From IMG/VR virus record IMGVR_UViG_3300047554_000670: DNA of 20,000 nt, one strand, 5' to 3'. Shown here in pieces: positions 3,101-20,000 of this stretch (the first letter of the stretch is position 1; the number at the start of each line of letters is the position of its first letter). The stretch is from an uncultured virus (IMG/VR IMGVR_UViG_3300047554_000670) (taxonomy: Duplodnaviria > Heunggongvirae > Uroviricota > Caudoviricetes). The notes beneath the pieces were generated by a model, which was not told the DNA's origin, ran no database searches, and worked only from the letters and a program-made list of their open reading frames with translations. Position numbers and translations under genes: made by a program.

Positions 3101-3327
3101 GGAAGCTCCAAGAAAAAGTGATTATACAGATACACCCCATTGAAGTCCCCACTAGTGAAGAGACTAAGGGACTTGAAATCAAAATCAACTACGGCTTTGA
3201 TGTCAAACTCAAACCACCAACGTTTTGGTGCTTGAGGAAATAAATTCAGTGACACAAGTAGCATCACTGATTTATCCGTTTCTGAAGCGGGACTAAAATC
3301 CCAGTTGAAATCAACCATGTTAATCAC
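3097..3327 (-). CDS. Hypothetical protein (76 aa)
   Basis: ORF track; GTGA overlap with the cysS stop and ATGA overlap downstream. Confidence 0.65.
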   Translation of the reverse strand: MINMVDFNWDFSPASETDKSVMLLVSLNLFPQAPKRWWFEFDIKAVVDFDFKSLSLFTSGDFNGVYLYNHFFLELP

Positions 3328-4598
3328 CTATCCTGAACTTCCACCCCTAATGCTAACAATTTCTGATGTATGAGGTCAGCTTCAGCCCAGTTCTTAGCTT
3401 TACGAGCTAAGTTTCGAGCCGAAATAAGTTGTAGTACATGCGAACTAAGTGCCTCATCTTCAATTGCCATAGCTCTTAACCCTAATACATCTGCCAAAAT
3501 CAACAGCGTAATGCTATTGCAAGGAGTTAAGTTCTTGGCTAACTCAAATAGAACTGCTAGAGCTTTGGCTGTATTAAGGTCACAGTCTAAAGCATCGTTG
3601 AATCGGGCAACAAAATAAAGGTCAAATTGACTATCTTCGGTTATATTCTCCTTAGCTTTAATCAAAGCTTTATTCAGAGATTTCCAACTATTTGATGCGG
3701 ATTCAAGAGCCTCCGTGGTAAATGCTAAAGGTTTACGGTAGTGAGCTTGAAGCACAAATAACCGTAGTGCCATGGGAGAAATACCCTGGAGGTCTAGCAA
3801 GTCTCTGATAGAGGTAAAGTTCCCCTGAGACTTAGACATCTTATCCCCATTGAGGGTTACAAATCCATTGTGGAGCCAAAACTGAGATAACATATGTCCC
3901 GTAACAGCCTCAGACTGTGCAATCTCATTCTCATGATGAGGAAATACGAGGTCCGCACCTCCACAATGAATATCGATACGGTCTCCTAAAGTATCTCGAA
4001 TCATGGCGGAGCATTCAATATGCCATCCAGGTCTTCCTGGACCCCATTTAGAGGGCCAGTTAGGTTCTTCGGGTTTTGCGCTCTTCCAAAGAACGAAATC
4101 ATTTTCTTTCGTTACCTCGATATTTCGTTTTGAAAGCTTACCATAGCCTTCAAACTTACTTATGTCAAAGTAAACCCCATCATCTTTAACTTCATAAGTG
4201 TATTCTTTCTGTTCTAGCTCATGAATTAGTCGTTTAATTCCATCAAGGGTATGAGTAACACGAGGGTAGGCATCAGCTTTCATAATGTTAAGCCTTTCCA
4301 TATCCTCAAAATATGCTTGGATGTATTTCTCCGCTATGTCCTCCATAAGTACATTTTCTTGTTTGGCCCGGTTGAGAATCTTGTCATCTATATCAGTGAA
4401 GTTCTGTACATACTTCACCTTATAACCTAACCAAAGAAGATATCTGCGTAGGGTGTCCCAGACAATATAGGAGCGGGCATGGCCAAGATGACAATAATCA
4501 TATACGGTTACACCACAGCAATATATACTAACTTGCTTTGGTGTAAGAGGTTGAAAGAGTTCTTCGCGACGTGTGAGGCTGTTGTAGAGGTATAACAT
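3324..4598 (-). CDS. cysS: Cysteinyl-tRNA synthetase (class I), cyanobacterial-like, shortened
   Basis: YCCGVTVYDYCHLGHAR (HIGH), NFTDIDDKI, GRPGWHIECSAM, DIHCGGADLVFPHHENE, KMSKS, and a C-terminal ARKAKNWAEAD anticodon helix. Confidence 0.97.
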   Translation of the reverse strand: MLYLYNSLTRREELFQPLTPKQVSIYCCGVTVYDYCHLGHARSYIVWDTLRRYLLWLGYKVKYVQNFTDIDDKILNRAKQENVLMEDIAEKYIQAYFEDMERLNIMKADAYPRVTHTLDGIKRLIHELEQKEYTYEVKDDGVYFDISKFEGYGKLSKRNIEVTKENDFVLWKSAKPEEPNWPSKWGPGRPGWHIECSAMIRDTLGDRIDIHCGGADLVFPHHENEIAQSEAVTGHMLSQFWLHNGFVTLNGDKMSKSQGNFTSIRDLLDLQGISPMALRLFVLQAHYRKPLAFTTEALESASNSWKSLNKALIKAKENITEDSQFDLYFVARFNDALDCDLNTAKALAVLFELAKNLTPCNSITLLILADVLGLRAMAIEDEALSSHVLQLISARNLARKAKNWAEADLIHQKLLALGVEVQDR

Positions 4599-13803: not shown

Positions 13804-14079
13804 TTAATCGAATCTATGTGTTTCGATTTCTACTGTAATTTTCTCATCTTCTAGCGATAGGAAAACATTAGTGATACGTGTTACCGTTTCATACATCACA
13901 TAGATAGAAAAATCCGTATCATAGTGAGGATAGAACTGGCAGGGTCTTAACATCCCTTGACGTTCATAGAAACGTTTTGGTAAGGGAAAGATGCAATAAT
14001 CTTTAGGGTAGGATATTTGCTTAAAGGCATCTGGGGATCCGTATTCTTTAAGGAGATGAGAGAAAAGACGATCAAACAT
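13804..14079 (-). CDS. Hypothetical protein (91 aa), probably the first gene of the minus-strand block
   Basis: GGAG SD upstream of ATG 14079. Confidence 0.75.
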   Translation of the reverse strand: MFDRLFSHLLKEYGSPDAFKQISYPKDYCIFPLPKRFYERQGMLRPCQFYPHYDTDFSIYVMYETVTRITNVFLSLEDEKITVEIETHRFD

Positions 14080-14259
14080 CTTAATAACTCCAGTGTGTTA
14101 GGTCTATTTAGAATCATCATCAACCATAAGCTATGGATGGGATGACTCAAGATAGACCAGGATGAAAGTAACATATACAGTTTAGGTATATGGCACTTTA
14201 GGGGTTAAGTTAATCTACTTTGTTTGTACGGTAAAGATGTTAGACTGTGACCCGTGTTA

Positions 14260-14665
14260 GAAAGGCGCTTTAAGCAATGCCTCCTGGGTGTGTGAATCAT
14301 CTTCAGAGATACGGTAGATTTAGAGCATACTGCCAAGATATAGGGTTTAATTGTAACCCTATGGCGTAACCCTAACCTTTACGGTAGGGTTTGGGTTTGT
14401 AGCGTACTGCTTAACACCTCCCACCCCCTATAAGTCACAGGGTGGGCATACTGCCCAACATTTAGGCTTGTTAGGTAACCCTTACGCTTATGGTAGGTTG
14501 CGTAAGTACCCTTAGAGTTAAGGCTCTAAGACCTAGCCGGTTTTGTACTACAGGTTTTCTACCGACTGAACCATTAAGTTGTCAAGGTACGCGGGCTAGA
14601 CTGTACCAGAATTAAGCCTAAGCTTAAACTGGACCAAGTTGAAGCCTAACCACAGCTTCAAGACT
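14260..14665 (-). ncRNA. Candidate structured ncRNA or long structured leader
   Basis: About 10 closely spaced hairpins; informative G-U pairs favour the minus strand; three GCAGTAYGC motifs; no convincing ORF. Confidence 0.55.
14573..14590 (-). promoter_or_regulatory. boxA-like antitermination element (cyanobacterial type)
   Basis: Minus strand GTACCTTGACAACTTAAT resembles cyanobacterial rrn boxA (GAACCTTGAAAACTG..), preceded by two hairpins. Confidence 0.6.
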
Positions 14666-14713
14666 TTGGGACTACAGCGCAATCGCACCGTTTCCCTTAT
14701 CTCTGATGCCAAT

Positions 14714-14742
14714 AGCATAACGTGAACGAAAGTAAATGACCA
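14714..14742 (-). promoter_or_regulatory. Possible sigma70-type promoter for the minus-strand block
   Basis: TGGTCA-17 nt-TATGCT on the minus strand, ~125 nt upstream of boxA. Confidence 0.3.
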
Positions 14743-15118
14743 GAATGACCCGAACAAACGAGATTTCAGGCAGAAATTGGTCAAATTTGGGTGTATTGGG
14801 TATGGTCTCACCAACCCAAACAAAAACCCACCTATACCCCACATATACAAAACTCAGTCTTATCAATCCTTAACGATGAATTCCTAAGAAAATTGCAAAT
14901 CGCAAATCAAAGAACATATCATGGAAATTTAGACCCCTAATTACAAACCCCATATGATGAATTTAGGGGTATCTGATAACCCATAAATTTCTAAGGTAGA
15001 ATTGGATATGATAAATCACAAACAGAACCTATATAAAATCTGTATATATCGTATATATGATATGTGTGTATGTGTATATAGGTATCTCTCATATCTTTCA
15101 TTTAACGAGGTCATTTCT

Positions 15119-15901
15119 GTGTCTAACATCGCCAAATACGACTGGGACCAAATCCGTAACGAATACATCATGGGGAATCTTCATACAGACCCTAAAACTG
15201 GTTTACGCAAACACACCTACCCTACGCATAAACAAATTAGTGCCAAATACGGAGTAAATCTCTCATATCTACAAGATAAGTCTTGTGCTGAATTCTGGGG
15301 ACAACGTAGAAAGGCCCTAAAAGCCAAACTTCATAACAGATTTGTAGACTGGAAACTTGGTGCATTCATAAGTGAATCTGCACAAGTAGATGCCTTGACC
15401 GTAGATAAGATTAAGAAAATTCATCAAGTTATGGACCTATATCTAGAACAAGCACTAAATCCCTTAGAAACCACAAATGAACAGGGGGATACGAAGGTAG
15501 AATTTAACGTGACACCAAATGAGTTACAAAGCATCGTGACCACATTGGAGAAATGCCAGAAACTTATGAGATTAAGTAACAATGAACCCGTAGACGCAGC
15601 ATCCGTAGCAAAAGAACTTAAAAAAGCTCTATTACAGGACTATGAAAAACCCACAAACACATATGGTAAGAACGAAAACTCATATGGATATGGGAAAAAC
15701 CAATCTTCCATACCCATTGGGGTACAACAAGAAATAGACCAAAAACTTAAATCAGTCTATGGAGATATCATTGATATCGAACATACAACAGTAGAAGATC
15801 AAAATCAAACTCTATCTACATTGCAAAAGAAAGAAAAGAATCTTGATAAAGTGATGAAAAAGATAGAAGAAGAGATTGAAGAACTTAAGAAAGACCCATA
15901 A
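15119..15901 (+). CDS. Terminase small subunit-like HTH protein
   Basis: GAGG SD then GTG 15119; KYDWDQIRNEYIMG...THKQISAKYGV...LQDKSCAEFW fits the DW..I...Y..G...KYGV...E.W HTH pattern of many TerS; helical/coiled-coil remainder. Confidence 0.65.
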   Translation: MSNIAKYDWDQIRNEYIMGNLHTDPKTGLRKHTYPTHKQISAKYGVNLSYLQDKSCAEFWGQRRKALKAKLHNRFVDWKLGAFISESAQVDALTVDKIKKIHQVMDLYLEQALNPLETTNEQGDTKVEFNVTPNELQSIVTTLEKCQKLMRLSNNEPVDAASVAKELKKALLQDYEKPTNTYGKNENSYGYGKNQSSIPIGVQQEIDQKLKSVYGDIIDIEHTTVEDQNQTLSTLQKKEKNLDKVMKKIEEEIEELKKDP

Positions 15902-15954
15902 GATGAAGGATTTGAAACGACCAGGGTGTAGGGTATAAGGACGTACGGAGTTTA

Positions 15955-16130
15955 CCTGTATCCTCATATCACACATATCTTATGTACCCCATATCAGATG
16001 ACCCATATCCCGTATCATACGTATCCGATACCCTCATACCCTCATACCCTATGATTCCTTATCATACGTATCATAGGGTCTCATATCATTCATATCTTAG
16101 GGGTTTACGATACCGTACGTATCATATGGA
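15955..16130. repeat. Low-complexity CATA/TATC-rich repeat patch
   Basis: TATCATACGTATC at 16013 and 16060; ATACCCTC-like unit x3 from 16029; lies between convergent genes. Confidence 0.65.
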
Positions 16131-16177
16131 CGATAGGTTAGATATCAAGATTAATCTTTATTTAATTCTATTGAATA

Positions 16178-17389
16178 TCAATCTGTATTTAACTCTATCG
16201 GAGTAATATCAAACAAATATTCCAATATCTTATTCTCTATAAATGGATTTGTTAATCCTAACCAACCTACGATAATAACAGTGAGGGTCTTTATTGGCAA
16301 ATTGGTGCTGGCCCAAGAACACATTCTAAATAATGCATTAAGGTCTTTTAGTGGAGCCATCGTAATCTGTACATCCTCTATAGCGCCCTTCATATCCCTT
16401 ATATCCAATAGCACTGTATCTAATCGACTTACCACACTATCCTTGTCTTCAAATACTCGTTTCTGTAATCTAATAACATCACTCTCTAGATTATTAAGTA
16501 GTAATCGACTTCCTGAATCCTCTAATGAAGCTAATGCTGATTCTTTCGTTGCCTCTATATGGTCCAATCTAAGTTCACACAACACATAATTCAATGAGGT
16601 TGTCTTATCTCCTAAATAAGGTGTAAAGAAGAATTCTCCAACCTTCATAGGAACCTTACTACTACCTTTATAGAACTCTCTAAGCCTCATCATGTCACTC
16701 TTATCAAAACAAGGTAAGTCCCATACATAACCTTTATTGAGACCTAACGAAAAATTATACTCATATTTAGTTAATAGATGAGCATAAAATCTCCTATTAA
16801 ATTTGATAATTGACCCATCCAGCGTAGTGATGACCAAAGCATTAAAGCTACTTTCAAATAATCCTTCCAATAAATTCTTACTCTTCTTAATATCCTCATT
16901 TCTACAATAATGTTCTGTAATATTTCGTATCAACAACACATAATACTTGGCATTCATTGGATACCCATGTATGTATAGATATTGAGTGAGAGTACAAGAT
17001 GAAGGAGTTAAATCATTTATAGATATATTGTTATGGGTATAGGGGATATTACTTGTGCTATAGGGGTTTGAACTTGTGTTATTGGGAGTAACTAAGCTAT
17101 CAATTAACTCTTTGCTCGTATGAGATGTGACATCAATATTAAGTTGTATCTCTTTATGCACCACAGTCCTTTCATATATCGCATATAGAATAGGTTCTTT
17201 ATCTTCATCACTAAGAGATGATAAGTCGAAGGGTTCCTTAAGACGTTGAGGTAACAAAGACTGTATTTTCGTCAAATAACTCGGATTATAATACACAACT
17301 CTATATGCCGTATCTTCGGGGTCTTTATGAAGAACTAATATAGGGTCATCACTAGAGTCAATAAACTGATTAAGAAGGGACTTATGCAT
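16178..17389 (-). CDS. Tandem PAS-domain protein with C-terminal coiled coil and hydrophobic helix
   Basis: FIDSSDDPILVL...YRVVYYNPSY (PAS start), VLLIRNITE (PAS-terminal DIT-like motif), helical linker, LFESSFNALVITTLDGSIIKFNRRF (second PAS); ends IKTLTVIIVGWLGL. Confidence 0.75.
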   Translation of the reverse strand: MHKSLLNQFIDSSDDPILVLHKDPEDTAYRVVYYNPSYLTKIQSLLPQRLKEPFDLSSLSDEDKEPILYAIYERTVVHKEIQLNIDVTSHTSKELIDSLVTPNNTSSNPYSTSNIPYTHNNISINDLTPSSCTLTQYLYIHGYPMNAKYYVLLIRNITEHYCRNEDIKKSKNLLEGLFESSFNALVITTLDGSIIKFNRRFYAHLLTKYEYNFSLGLNKGYVWDLPCFDKSDMMRLREFYKGSSKVPMKVGEFFFTPYLGDKTTSLNYVLCELRLDHIEATKESALASLEDSGSRLLLNNLESDVIRLQKRVFEDKDSVVSRLDTVLLDIRDMKGAIEDVQITMAPLKDLNALFRMCSWASTNLPIKTLTVIIVGWLGLTNPFIENKILEYLFDITPIELNTD

Positions 17390-17603
17390 AAGATGTAGAT
17401 GTAGGGTGATGATATGAATATAAGAGGGTAATATGACTCTTATAGTAGGGATTTATATAATACTCTGATGATGTATGAATCTATTCTATCGAAAGAAAGT
17501 TTTATAGACTTTAGTTTAACTATGTATATATAGATGTATATAAACGTAGATATCTGTATGTATATGTATACATAGATTATCACGCATTTAAGGATGATTT
17601 CAG

Positions 17604-18202
17604 ATGTAACTTTTTCTAACATAGTGTTCTCTAATTTATACAAACAGTTGTACAAAAAACGTTACATATCAAAAAATGTTGCAGTTAAAAAATCATACTA
17701 GGGAATATTCATAGTTTGTAGACCTGCAACCGTTTTTGATCAAAAATGTTTCATCTATAGCTAAAATATTCCAAAAAACGTTGCATCCAGAATATGACAA
17801 AAAACGTTGTACCTTATATATTTCAAAAAAGGTTGTACCTAGAATAATCTAGAAAACGTTGCACTTTATATGCTAGATTTATAAAAATGACCTTAAATAC
17901 CGTGATAAGTTCTACTCCAATTGTACATTTTAGCTGCAAAAAAAATTTGCACAATTTCTCTTTCTATAGCAATAAATCCCAAAAAAATTTTGCAGGTATA
18001 TACTTTTTCGTCAAGATATCTTGAATCTATCTTAGTGTGTAACTTATTTGTGTGTAACTTTTTTTAGTAACGTCTTCTAGTGTTTATACAAACAGTTATA
18101 CAGAAAATGTTACTCTCCCTGATAATTTCTTAGTTTATTCATTTTTCATATTTTTATGACTAAAAATTTAAGTCTCATTTAATTATACAAAAAATGTTAC
18201 AT
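17604..18202. repeat. AT-rich iteron-like region, candidate replication origin
   Basis: More than 12 copies of (C)AAAAAA(C/T/G)GTT(G/A)(C/T)A in both orientations; four in tandem at an exact 26-bp period (17772, 17798, 17824, 17850). Confidence 0.75.
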
Positions 18203-18205
18203 TCA

Positions 18206-18214
18206 TGTTATACT
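18206..18214 (+). promoter_or_regulatory. Extended -10 promoter element (TGnTATACT) for the helicase-like gene
   Basis: TGTTATACT ~30 nt upstream of ATG 18244; a repeat box sits immediately upstream. Confidence 0.45.
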
Positions 18215-18243
18215 AAGAATGTACTTACAGAGAAATCTTATTC

Positions 18244-19938
18244 ATGTTTTATTCTGATTGTTTTAATTCTATCCCCGAAGGTATTGTTAATAAAAAGGTA
18301 TGTGGTTGTGGCATCACATCCTATGCATTAGAGAACGCATCTCCAATAATTCTCTGTGTTCCTACAGTAGAGATTATTCGCAACAAACTCTCTCAATACC
18401 CCAACGAAAGAAGAAAAGAAGAAATCCTTGGCATATATGAAGGAAAGAACAAACACAGTTATCAGATTGAATCCTACCTAGATAAGGTAGATGTTCCTAA
18501 AATCCTAGTTACTTATGATAGTCTCCACTACCTAACTCCCTATCTTAATATGTTTCATTTGGTGATTGATGAATTCAGCGAATTACTTGATTGTTATTCC
18601 TTTCGTTCTAATGCCATTAACAGTCTAGTAGAAATTATTAAAGCTAAACGTTATCAAAAGTTATCTTTAGTATCCGCAACACCTATATCCTCTGAATACC
18701 TCCCTGCTTATTTACAGGAGCTTCCTTATACAGAACTAGATTGGAAAGAAGATGATTTAATCAAAGTTAATGTTGTACCGATTCAAACTTCTCGTACAGT
18801 AACTTCAGTTCTAAATATTATTAAAAACTATAAGCGTGGTCTTGTTAAAGATTCTAATCAAGCATTTTTCTTTGTTAATTCCTTAAGCTTAATCACTAGT
18901 ATCTTAGAAAAGTCAGACCTTACTACTAATGATGTTCATGTTGTCTGTAGTAATACAAGAGCAAATAAAAATAGACTTGATTACTTCTCCATCTCAACTA
19001 CAACAGATGTAAATAATACTCCTCGGATGTTTAACTTCTTTACCTCTACAGCATTCAAAGGATGTGATATTTACAGTGAGTCAGGTATGAGTTATGTAAT
19101 TAGTAACAATACCAATATAAATACACTACTTACAATTGACACAGATATCTACCAGATTGCAGGACGTATCAGAACTCCCCATAACCCTCATCGTCACACC
19201 TTATACCATATTCATAATCAAAATCCACTTGCCTTAGCTAAGGAAGATGCTGATAACTTAAGAGACTCAATTAAACAAGAAACTTTAAGCTTAATAGCTG
19301 CATTCGATAAAGCCTCTCCAAAAGAACGGAAAGACCTTATTAATATTTACCTTAAAAGTAATATTGATAAGACCACATATAGTCTTATTGATAAAGAAAA
19401 TACAAAACTTATCTATGATGAATTAAAAGAATTATTAGATAAAAGAGTGTATGAGACCGTGATTAAGGTTTATCAATCAGGGTTGTCTTTAATAAAAACC
19501 TATGAGGATAATAACTACATTGTAAAAGAAACCATAAAGTCTAATGTTATTAGAGATGATTTCTCTACGGTGTTTAAGCTCTATTACCAAAATCCTAATT
19601 GTAATAATGAAGATATCTTTACTAGATTTCCCTTAATAGAAGAAGCTTGTACTAAATTAGGTTTGGAAAGATGTAAGACTCTTGCCTTTAGAAAAGATAG
19701 AATTACAGAAGAACTTTCTTTCGTCAATAACCAAGAAAGTATTAAGAACCTCTTGAGAAATAGGTTGAAAAAAGAATTCTATTCCTTAGCTGATATCAAA
19801 CTTCTACTAGGTAAGACCTATAAAGAACTTGGTATTAATAAAAAAGCTAAGGCTAAAGATATAGAGTTATTCTTACCCCTATCCGAAACAACACTTCAGA
19901 TTAAAGGTAAAAGAGTTAAAGGTTATAGAATTAAATAA
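18244..19938 (+). CDS. SF2 (DEAD/DEAH-like) helicase-domain protein, putative origin-binding/replication initiator
   Basis: Motif I-like KVCGCGITS, Ia CVPTVEII, II VIDEFS, III SATP, IV FFVNS, V TSTAFKGCD, VI QIAGRIR; basic C-terminal domain. Confidence 0.8.
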   Translation: MFYSDCFNSIPEGIVNKKVCGCGITSYALENASPIILCVPTVEIIRNKLSQYPNERRKEEILGIYEGKNKHSYQIESYLDKVDVPKILVTYDSLHYLTPYLNMFHLVIDEFSELLDCYSFRSNAINSLVEIIKAKRYQKLSLVSATPISSEYLPAYLQELPYTELDWKEDDLIKVNVVPIQTSRTVTSVLNIIKNYKRGLVKDSNQAFFFVNSLSLITSILEKSDLTTNDVHVVCSNTRANKNRLDYFSISTTTDVNNTPRMFNFFTSTAFKGCDIYSESGMSYVISNNTNINTLLTIDTDIYQIAGRIRTPHNPHRHTLYHIHNQNPLALAKEDADNLRDSIKQETLSLIAAFDKASPKERKDLINIYLKSNIDKTTYSLIDKENTKLIYDELKELLDKRVYETVIKVYQSGLSLIKTYEDNNYIVKETIKSNVIRDDFSTVFKLYYQNPNCNNEDIFTRFPLIEEACTKLGLERCKTLAFRKDRITEELSFVNNQESIKNLLRNRLKKEFYSLADIKLLLGKTYKELGINKKAKAKDIELFLPLSETTLQIKGKRVKGYRIK

Positions 19939-20000
19939 TACATATATATCTTCATATACCCTTATATCCAGATACACATATTCATACATATACATATACA

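Follow-up and report, generated by a model that had tools for sequence, protein, structure and literature searches.

Few phages are known to carry a sensor of their own for chemical or physical signals. The studied example with a PAS domain is VqmA-Phi of vibriophage VP882, reported as a phage-encoded PAS quorum-sensing receptor (bioRxiv 10.1101/2021.04.15.439952; PMC12802170). Cellular tandem-PAS proteins such as Brucella LOV-PAS-HK (6pps, 6ph4), FixL (8js5), DosP, NifL and MmoS have two PAS folds in series, a DIT-type helix and then a further helix. At the membrane, XhlA of PBSX (Pfam PF10779) combines a short coiled coil with a hydrophobic helix at its C-terminus. Timing of a phage membrane event is represented by T4 lysis inhibition, in which holin T is reported to act with antiholin RI (PMC11413866). 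Here we describe a phage gene with elements of these layouts. It lies on the minus strand at 16178..17389 of a 20,000-nucleotide stretch from an uncultured virus of the Caudoviricetes (IMG/VR record IMGVR_UViG_3300047554_000670); this whole stretch is called the window below.

The encoded protein, called the PAS protein here, has a tandem of PAS folds, and the helical linker between them is of the DIT type found in bacterial multi-PAS sensors. The protein contains no kinase, cyclase, phosphodiesterase or DNA-binding domain. Phage-borne PAS domains were already known; the difference lies in the output, which has no enzyme and no helix-turn-helix (HTH) and consists of a helical and hydrophobic tail found in phages only. 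The structural claim is solid, the membrane and functional claims are tentative.

Domain architecture

The gene and its parts, all on the minus strand, are listed with the residues of the protein and the basis of each assignment (AF2, AlphaFold2; pLDDT, predicted local distance difference test).

16178..17389, minus: whole open reading frame (ORF; P0001), 403 amino acids (aa) and stop, ATG start; ORF list and homologues
16922..17389, minus: PAS-A, residues 1-156, with N-cap helix, five strands and helices; Pfam, AF2 and VIA
16988..17140, minus: N/S/T-rich insertion in PAS-A, about residues 84-134, between the G and H strands
16844..16921, minus: inter-PAS linker helix with NITE (DIT-type) motif, residues 157-182; AF2 helix 158-180
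16562..16843, minus: PAS-B, residues 183-276; conserved columns, Foldseek, VIA and PDB profile
16301..16561, minus: helical, heptad-like region, residues 277-363; helices 277-288, 292-313 and 319-363, pLDDT ~50-65
16448..16492, minus: invariant motif NLESDVIRLQ-xx-VFE, residues 300-314; alignments
16250..16294, minus: proline-bounded hydrophobic helix, residues 366-380, candidate membrane anchor; AF2 helix and hydropathy
16181..16249, minus: acidic amphipathic C-terminal tail, residues 381-403, with conserved D..(I/L)E(L/I); AF2 helix 382-395

Pfam PAS_8 (PF13188) matched the protein in two stretches with E 6.7e-6 and 26.3 bits, above its cut-off of 21.8; only PAS_4 (0.27) and COG6_N (0.053) completed the list at E<=10. 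A full-length model was built with AlphaFold2 on a 5-sequence alignment (mean pLDDT 63.1, predicted template modelling score, pTM, 0.34), and across residues 11-80 its block means of pLDDT were 83-87. In this model PAS-A is composed of an N-cap helix (5-12), strands 17-22, 29-34, 77-87, 132-144 and 149-156, and helices 36-41 and 61-73. Searched against the PDB with Foldseek, the model returned 111 matches at E<=1e-3 with tandem-PAS structures at the head: the LOV-PAS of Brucella LOV-HK (6pps_B, 1.7e-9) came first, then FixL PAS-A/B (8js5), DosP, NifL, PpsR and MmoS. VIA-align superposed residues 1-175 on the short LOV protein 5luv_B with Z 12.7 and a root mean square deviation (rmsd) of 3.3 A over 125 residues, and Z values of 10-12.7 were obtained against 50 PAS/LOV entries. 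The tandem-PAS rows of the VIA list cover model residues 1-276, and ESM Atlas rows align residues 1-286 with tandem PAS proteins. With a sequence model above threshold and a superposable five-stranded fold, PAS-A as predicted is a member of the PAS superfamily.

The structures nearest to PAS-A are short LOV proteins. LOV domains carry a GXNCRFLQ-type motif with an adduct-forming cysteine. A search for this flavin-cysteine motif (regular expression NC[RK]F / G.NC) came back empty for 7/7 family sequences, and a LOV photoreceptor was rejected, the likeness being in shape only. The N/S/T-rich insertion of PAS-A falls on a 50-column gap in 3/3 close homologues (P0002-P0004) and has pLDDT <50 at residues 88-132; a further homologue, P0005, has different, K/D-rich insertions.

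The linker reads LIRNITEHY at residues 152-160. By BLASTP, residues ~138-218 align with the junction formed by a PAS end, a DITE motif and the start of the next PAS in the multi-PAS proteins P0017 and P0012, and this NITE junction is also the best-matching stretch in the 72 long cellular proteins described below. PAS-B is the most conserved domain, with invariant KFNRRFY.HLL..YE.NF, LPCF and G.F.FTPY, and its modelled strands are 184-189, 193-197, 248-250, 253-259 and 267-273. Since the first VIA list scarcely tested PAS-B, residues 164-403 were folded apart from PAS-A (mean pLDDT 60.6). Foldseek then gave the PAS domain 3bwl as best match at E 1.1e-3, with none at or below 1e-3, and most of the rows listed were PAS, LOV or PAS-kinase. 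A wide VIA search over 48,161 chains, independent of Foldseek, listed PAS or LOV entries in 50/50 rows; the Z values are middling (5.9-8.2, rmsd ~3-5 A, 82-120 residues) and the list is uniform. It agrees with the PDB sequence profile, whose best match for PAS-B was again 3bwl_A (E 0.051), and with the tandem-PAS rows of the ESM Atlas. A PAS assignment of the second domain is thus supported by predicted fold and sequence similarity, with moderate confidence (pLDDT 54-85).

An initial annotation of this DNA, made from the letters alone, had placed the ORF at these positions and described two PAS-like segments with an RNITE-helix linker and an N/S/T-rich insertion in the first. The ORF list returned the same frame (minus strand, 403 aa), Pfam, AF2, Foldseek and VIA support the PAS-PAS reading, and the insertion is borne out by the homologue gap and the low pLDDT. 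Its statement that no H-box, GGDEF, EAL or HTH is visible was right as well. At E<=10 the protein matched no HisKA, HATPase_c, GGDEF/EAL or HTH family of Pfam, and regular expressions for the H-box (H[ED][LIMFV][RK]), GGDEF and EAL motifs found nothing in 7/7 family sequences. The protein stops 23 residues past the hydrophobic helix. PADLOC defence-system models gave 0 families for 6 proteins.

A degenerate histidine kinase was also considered. The H-box motif is FLANMSHELRTPL, and the tail contains a superficially H-box-like LLNNLESDVIRLQ. Aligned by hhalign to 14 H-box/DHp regions drawn from the remote cellular matches, the tail reached 0.2% probability over 14 columns elsewhere in the tail, and this candidate was dropped.

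The C-terminal module

Behind PAS-B, AF2 placed helices at residues 277-288, 292-313, 319-363, 366-380 and 382-395 (pLDDT ~50-65). The strings LESDVIRLQKRV (residues 301-312) and IRDMKGAIEDVQ (330-341) are both present. From residue 293 to 345 one heptad register has L/I/V/M/F at 11/15 a/d positions, against 3-9 in the other six registers; the heptad-like region of the initial annotation, like its hydrophobic C-terminal stretch, is therefore present. Solved coiled coils matched this region weakly in the PDB sequence profile, with TRPM7 and VP35 at E 0.2-0.9 only.

The strongest conservation of the whole protein lies here. N300-Q309 and V312-E314 are invariant in 5/5 and in 7/7 sequences and form its longest invariant run. 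From the NLESDVIRLQ motif to the C-terminus the distance is 97-105 residues in 7/7 sequences, despite insertions of 25-50 residues elsewhere in the family. In the acidic tail E399 is invariant in 5/5 sequences, D394 in the 4-sequence alignment only. The hydrophobic stretch ahead of the acidic tail covers residues 366-384 with a Kyte-Doolittle (KD) 19-aa mean of 1.46. Its helix of ~15-17 residues between prolines stands at the same place in 5/5 members and is preceded by an invariant Lys, usually in a P-W-K context; its sequence is variable and its hydrophobic character is kept across members.

Searches for this module outside the family were negative. It matched no PHROG and no Pfam family save COG6_N (E 0.011-0.024, below cut-off), a match that we read as coiled-coil noise. 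Neither a stand-alone homologue among proteins of 65-209 aa nor, in the exhaustive search, a match outside family members was detected, and tblastn of the tail against 50,697 phage records gave no match even at E<=5. In metagenomes the back-translated NLESDVIRLQ pattern occurred at 4 loci, but the peptide itself is encoded at L092 alone (in a close variant of P0005); in the viral contigs the pattern occurred at one locus, again the P0005-type gene on contig G001 described below. Judged by alignments and homology searches, the C-terminal module of ~100 aa is specific to this PAS family and constrained.

Gene family and selection

The ORF is a real gene. Its start codon is assigned correctly, since 4/4 homologues in the alignment open with the shared N-terminus M-x-K-x-LL-x-QFIDS. 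A word-indexed search (3,850 candidates) returned the protein itself and 3 relatives of 363-371 aa with 38-39% identity over 97-100% of the query. An exhaustive phmmer search of 1.84 billion representatives gave 75 proteins at E<=1e-3. Only 3 reached E<=1e-30, namely P0001 itself, P0003 and the 483-aa P0005. The remaining 72/75 are long cellular proteins (487-3,100 aa) that align best over a limited part of the query, residues ~103-250; all five that were scanned with Pfam are multi-PAS sensors, and 2/5 carry HisKA.

With the window's own protein included, the family counts no fewer than 21 distinct sequences, which fall into 5 clusters at 90% identity; four of these clusters, when looked up, had 8, 10, 1 and 1 members. 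With 5 clusters in a single phage lineage, the family is rare. A contig of 133,901 bp carries one member, and the window's own PAS protein is recorded on a contig of 136,124 bp. Contigs from 4 freshwater-metagenome runs (3 other studies) cover parts of the region at ~88-100% identity. No relative came from single-protein scans of genome, metagenome and viral contigs, nothing from tblastn of the whole protein against phage records, and megablast of 14000-20000 had no match among plasmids or phages.

Among the variants displayed, beyond which there are 279 more, 5/6 in the PAS ORF are at codon position 3. The sixth changes the first base of Leu codon 347, whose third base is altered as well. In the adjoining gene 30/34 displayed variants are at codon position 3. 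This third-position bias indicates that the PAS gene is under purifying selection.

Phage origin, host and neighbouring genes

A gene nearly identical to that of P0005 (91-98% over matched pieces) lies on IMG/VR contig G001, which is 24.8 kb long with a CheckV completeness of 18. This contig encodes a major head protein (phrog_29, 4.6e-27), a head-morphogenesis-type protein of 1,473 aa and a large terminase (TerL; phrog_38, 7.2e-84), besides an N6/N4 DNA methyltransferase, an HU-like protein and a class-I aminoacyl-tRNA-synthetase-like gene. The PAS gene is phage-borne and belongs to an uncultured freshwater phage lineage whose genomes measure about 134-136 kb or more. Among the outcomes that would speak against it, the initial annotation had named a truncated host kinase remnant without conserved phage homologues; this was not found, the family being spread over 5 clusters with a relative on this phage contig. 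The other features of the window, and one of the related locus L001, are as follows.

15119..15901, plus: small-terminase (TerS)-like gene, convergent neighbour; 54% identity to the L001 gene in the same position
17650..18200, minus (matches): divergent intergenic region with iteron-like array, upstream of the PAS gene; motif count
18244..19938, plus: DEAD-like helicase-type gene, 564 aa, divergent neighbour; Pfam DEAD E 1e-4, below cut-off
3324-4598, minus: cysteinyl-tRNA synthetase (CysRS), 424 aa; Pfam 2e-122
636-1007, minus: clear membrane ORF, the only one in the window; KD 2.83 at residues 22-40; phrog_30702, function not assigned, 4.7e-8
L001 5436-6722, minus: class-I synthetase-like gene, 428 aa; tRNA-synt_1, 2e-35

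The five best genomic matches of the CysRS are all cyanobacterial, from Phormidesmis (54%), Synechocystis (52%), Nodosilinea (51%), Gloeomargaritaceae (48%) and Chamaesiphon (49%); 599/600 candidate stretches of that search were confirmed as relatives. All 9 listed holders of this DNA are labelled freshwater metagenome, and none of these runs is an RNA dataset. From the CysRS, closest to cyanobacterial enzymes, and the freshwater holders, we take the lineage to be a freshwater phage whose host is probably a cyanobacterium. A CysRS in the window and a class-I synthetase-like gene in the related phage contig indicate that this lineage collects aminoacyl-tRNA synthetase genes.

Compared with a 13.6-kb stretch of G001, the window has only 3 ORFs in common, in identical order and orientation: the TerS-like gene (54% identity), the PAS gene and the DEAD-like helicase-type gene (46% to the L001 gene in the same position). 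The pair of TerS-like and PAS genes was found again on metagenome contig L092. The TerS-like family counts 9 proteins; its nearest Atlas clusters are viral hypothetical proteins (0.96), with Terminase_5/DUF1804 at rank 14 (0.94). A distant relative on the 86-kb viral contig L095 stands just upstream of a TerL gene 31% identical to the G001 TerL (E 5e-74). This position and the Terminase_5/DUF1804 match make the TerS reading, already proposed in the initial annotation for the left neighbour, a reasonable one. GTG 15119 is the probable start, since it alone keeps the conserved N-terminus KYDWD.IRNEY of close homologues; it gives MSNIAKYDWDQ... and has GAGG at 15106-15109, ten bases upstream. ATG 15170, which matches the 243-aa recorded P0086, and TTG 15002 of the mechanical ORF are unlikely.

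The ~1 kb upstream of the TerS-like gene (14080-15118) has no ORF of >=100 aa (the longest listed has 84 aa), no tRNA and no Rfam match. Between the convergent stops of the TerS-like and PAS genes, the 276-bp spacer 15902-16177 is dense in CATATC / GTATCATA-type short repeats, and a relative's contig shows insertions and rearrangements within it. Because it adjoins the small-terminase gene, it could be a putative packaging site.

On the other side, where an origin-like region had been noted, the spacer between the PAS and helicase genes does hold an iteron-like array. The window has 8 YAACRTTTTTTG matches, and 7 of them fall within these 854 bp, where 0.6 would be expected; all 7 are on the minus strand. 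Four array units with a 26-bp period occupy 17758-17863. Two copies of a 61-nt unit (17605-17665 and 18053-18113, 79% identical) have inverted GTAAC/GTTAC at their ends. The size of the array varies, as relatives' contigs in two other runs skip 17665-17877 (211 bp). A 60-71-aa, I/Y/V-rich, hydrophobic ORF at 17440-17655 (minus), preceded by a promoter-like TATAAA, lies immediately upstream of the PAS gene. Low-complexity DNA of the TATACATA type overlaps this ORF, relatives have a 10-nt deletion and a 27-nt insertion in it, and it is probably no gene. A scan of 15800-18300 gave 12 promoter-like sites, against 16 expected, and 0 terminators.

The helicase-type protein has tblastn relatives in 6 phage records, and the copy of Psychrobacter phage D'Alembert is annotated 'DEAD-like helicase'. 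In cultured ~90-kb phages the relatives of the helicase gene come directly after 0.9-1.3 kb of non-coding DNA at a divergent junction (Acinetobacter phage Phab24, L083 2971-3901; D'Alembert, L084 2560-3907), which in D'Alembert adjoins an annotated terminal repeat. A long spacer upstream of the helicase may be a conserved feature of such phages.

Discussion

We lean, with some reserve, towards reading the PAS protein as a sensor or adaptor that may be associated with a membrane and whose output is not enzymatic. The PAS pair would lie in the cytoplasm and bind a small ligand or cofactor, or report the redox or metabolic state. By analogy with other PAS-helix proteins, the protein probably dimerises. 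Its output would consist of protein-protein contacts through the invariant helical motif and not of catalysis, and the hydrophobic helix might hold the protein at the membrane meanwhile. In this way the phage could make some step of infection depend on the condition of its host. Lysis timing leads the single candidate steps, although the gene neighbours do not favour it, and as such it is doubtful.

Several observations weigh against this proposal. Its functional part comes from domain logic alone, and PAS folds can be plain interaction or scaffold domains that sense nothing. PAS-B and the tail were modelled at moderate confidence (pLDDT 54-85 and 50-65, pTM 0.34-0.41) from alignments of 5-7 sequences. 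The helix from PAS-B to the tail is interrupted at residues 289-291, and P0005 inserts ~44 K/D/E-rich residues at this break, so that strict coupling by a signalling helix is doubtful. As to the membrane, the KD 19-aa mean of the hydrophobic helix is 1.36-1.46 in 4/5 members and 1.78 in P0005, while a segment of the soluble CysRS in the same window reaches 1.61; on a Hessa-type scale the insertion energies are positive. The C-terminal membrane helix of the initial annotation stands in part: the hydrophobic helix is there, but its membrane character is not established, with 4/5 members below the soluble CysRS value. Whether the helix keeps the protein at the membrane appears to us evenly balanced.

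A rival reading would make the protein a sensor-gated lysis regulator, with a tail that acts as an XhlA-type holin accessory, holin or antiholin and a PAS pair that advances or delays lysis by host state. Cytoplasmic domains, a coiled coil and a C-terminal hydrophobic helix indeed give the layout for which XhlA had been named in the initial annotation, the helix keeps its character in 5/5 members, and lysis inhibition that responds to a signal is reported for T4 (PMC11413866). The analogy went no further than layout: the Pfam XhlA model was unmatched at E<=10 by the whole protein and by the C-terminal 119 and 132 aa of two members, a negative in which HMMER filters may hide very weak matches. 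The search for endolysins in the neighbourhood failed too, with no lysis enzyme, holin or spanin family among the window's 23 larger ORFs or 24 scanned ORFs of G001, the window being 20 kb of a 136-kb contig. The sole clear membrane-type ORF (636-1007) is 15 kb distant, the PAS gene stands alone between the TerS-like and helicase genes at a divergent promoter-type region, outside a late cassette, and the hydropathy of the helix is marginal. A role as lysis regulator is accordingly unlikely. If, instead of a partner in lysis, the PAS pair found one in the host, it could heterodimerise with a multi-PAS kinase or cyclase or sequester a partner, and so block or hijack a two-component or cyclic di-GMP pathway. 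PAS domains commonly dimerise, the protein has no output of its own, and the nearest cellular relatives of residues ~140-220 are the 72 long proteins found at E<=1e-3, multi-PAS in 5/5 scanned cases and with HisKA in 2/5. Their identity of 24-39%, though, is confined to short stretches and common to DIT junctions in general; the searches gave no specific host paralogue, the tail is unlike a DHp dimerisation domain (hhalign probability 0.2%), and its invariance would be left unexplained. We regard such a decoy as improbable.

The neighbourhood could suggest instead that the protein tethers phage DNA transactions to the membrane, or regulates them, as an organiser of replication or packaging. 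The order of TerS-like, PAS and helicase genes is kept in the window and G001, which share only these three ORFs, the TerS-like/PAS pair recurs on L092, and members of both clusters lie on contigs of equal size (3,170, 3,764 and 133,901 bp), which suggests the same pairing; the iteron-like array is directly upstream of the PAS gene. This synteny is not independent evidence, however, because all contigs come from a single phage lineage. The spacer between the PAS and helicase genes of G001 has only 166 bp and no array evident by eye, the protein has no DNA-binding domain, and the helicase relatives in cultured phages are without a PAS neighbour. An organiser of this kind is distinctly improbable. 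The last reading, a functionless, decaying remnant of a captured host sensor kinase, draws on the PAS-linker-PAS part, which is of bacterial sensor type. Against it stand full-length conservation in 5 clusters, an invariant non-PAS motif, a tail of near-constant size, variants biased to codon position 3 and the absence of kinase-derived sequence downstream. Relatives show no frameshifts or stops save for an unread stretch (X) in L001, through which P0005 reads. We find it scarcely credible.

Combined with the probable host, the sensor or adaptor reading can be extended to a cytoplasmic tandem-PAS sensor of a probable cyanophage, wired to the membrane through the phage-only helical module. The light, redox or metabolic state of the photosynthetic host would then decide when a membrane event takes place, lysis being the most attractive candidate. 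This extension is quite unlikely. If it were true, the protein would be a sensor-gated timer unmatched in the phages studied so far, and freshwater phages might have a wider, undescribed class of PAS-membrane modules of which it is one branch. Should the host be a cyanobacterium, the sensor could make infection responsive to light or redox state, with a bearing on the termination of freshwater blooms.

Relation to known systems

No paper on a phage PAS-PAS protein with a non-enzymatic helical tail was found in the literature covered, subscription journals lying outside it. A search combining bacteriophage, PAS domain and tail-anchored gave nothing, and the one for cyanophage and PAS domain gave none on a phage PAS protein, judging by titles and the beginnings of abstracts. 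The passages searched in PMC7824862 and PMC10468136 contain nothing on such a protein.

Among cellular proteins, the tandem-PAS structures named at the outset share with the PAS protein the two serial folds, the DIT-type helix and the helix that follows (Foldseek E 1.7e-9 to 2e-5). In contrast to the tandem-PAS kinases, it has no DHp/H-box, ATPase, GGDEF/EAL, HTH or LOV flavin-cysteine motif, is phage-borne and possesses a helical and hydrophobic tail of its own. Similar phage PAS proteins in BFVD are A0A6J5L941 of an uncultured Caudovirales, A0A2L0UZB1 of Agrobacterium phage Atu_ph07, A0A6J5KZZ3 and S0A2B2 of Cellulophaga phage phi18:3 (Foldseek E 1.3e-8 to 6e-3). The two best matches bear kinase names and presumably have a conventional output, the short proteins consist of PAS only, and the C-terminal module is shown in none.

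XhlA differs from the PAS protein, which has a 290-aa PAS-PAS N-terminus, a marginal hydrophobic helix and no adjacent holin or endolysin. T4 RI, without homology, is an example of how the PAS protein could work: by sensing a signal, a phage protein alters when a membrane event takes place. The signal for RI is phage superinfection, and RI is not known to carry a PAS domain. VqmA-Phi (7dwm_B, a VqmA-DPO complex) ranks 7 among the VIA matches of PAS-B (Z 7.5, rmsd 4.2 A, 120 residues), with no sequence similarity detected between the two proteins. VqmA-Phi is a transcription factor with one PAS and a DNA-binding domain, whereas the PAS protein has two PAS, no HTH and a hydrophobic C-terminus. 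It would thus represent a different design of phage sensor, with two PAS domains and, as sole output, a conserved helical and possibly membrane-bound tail.

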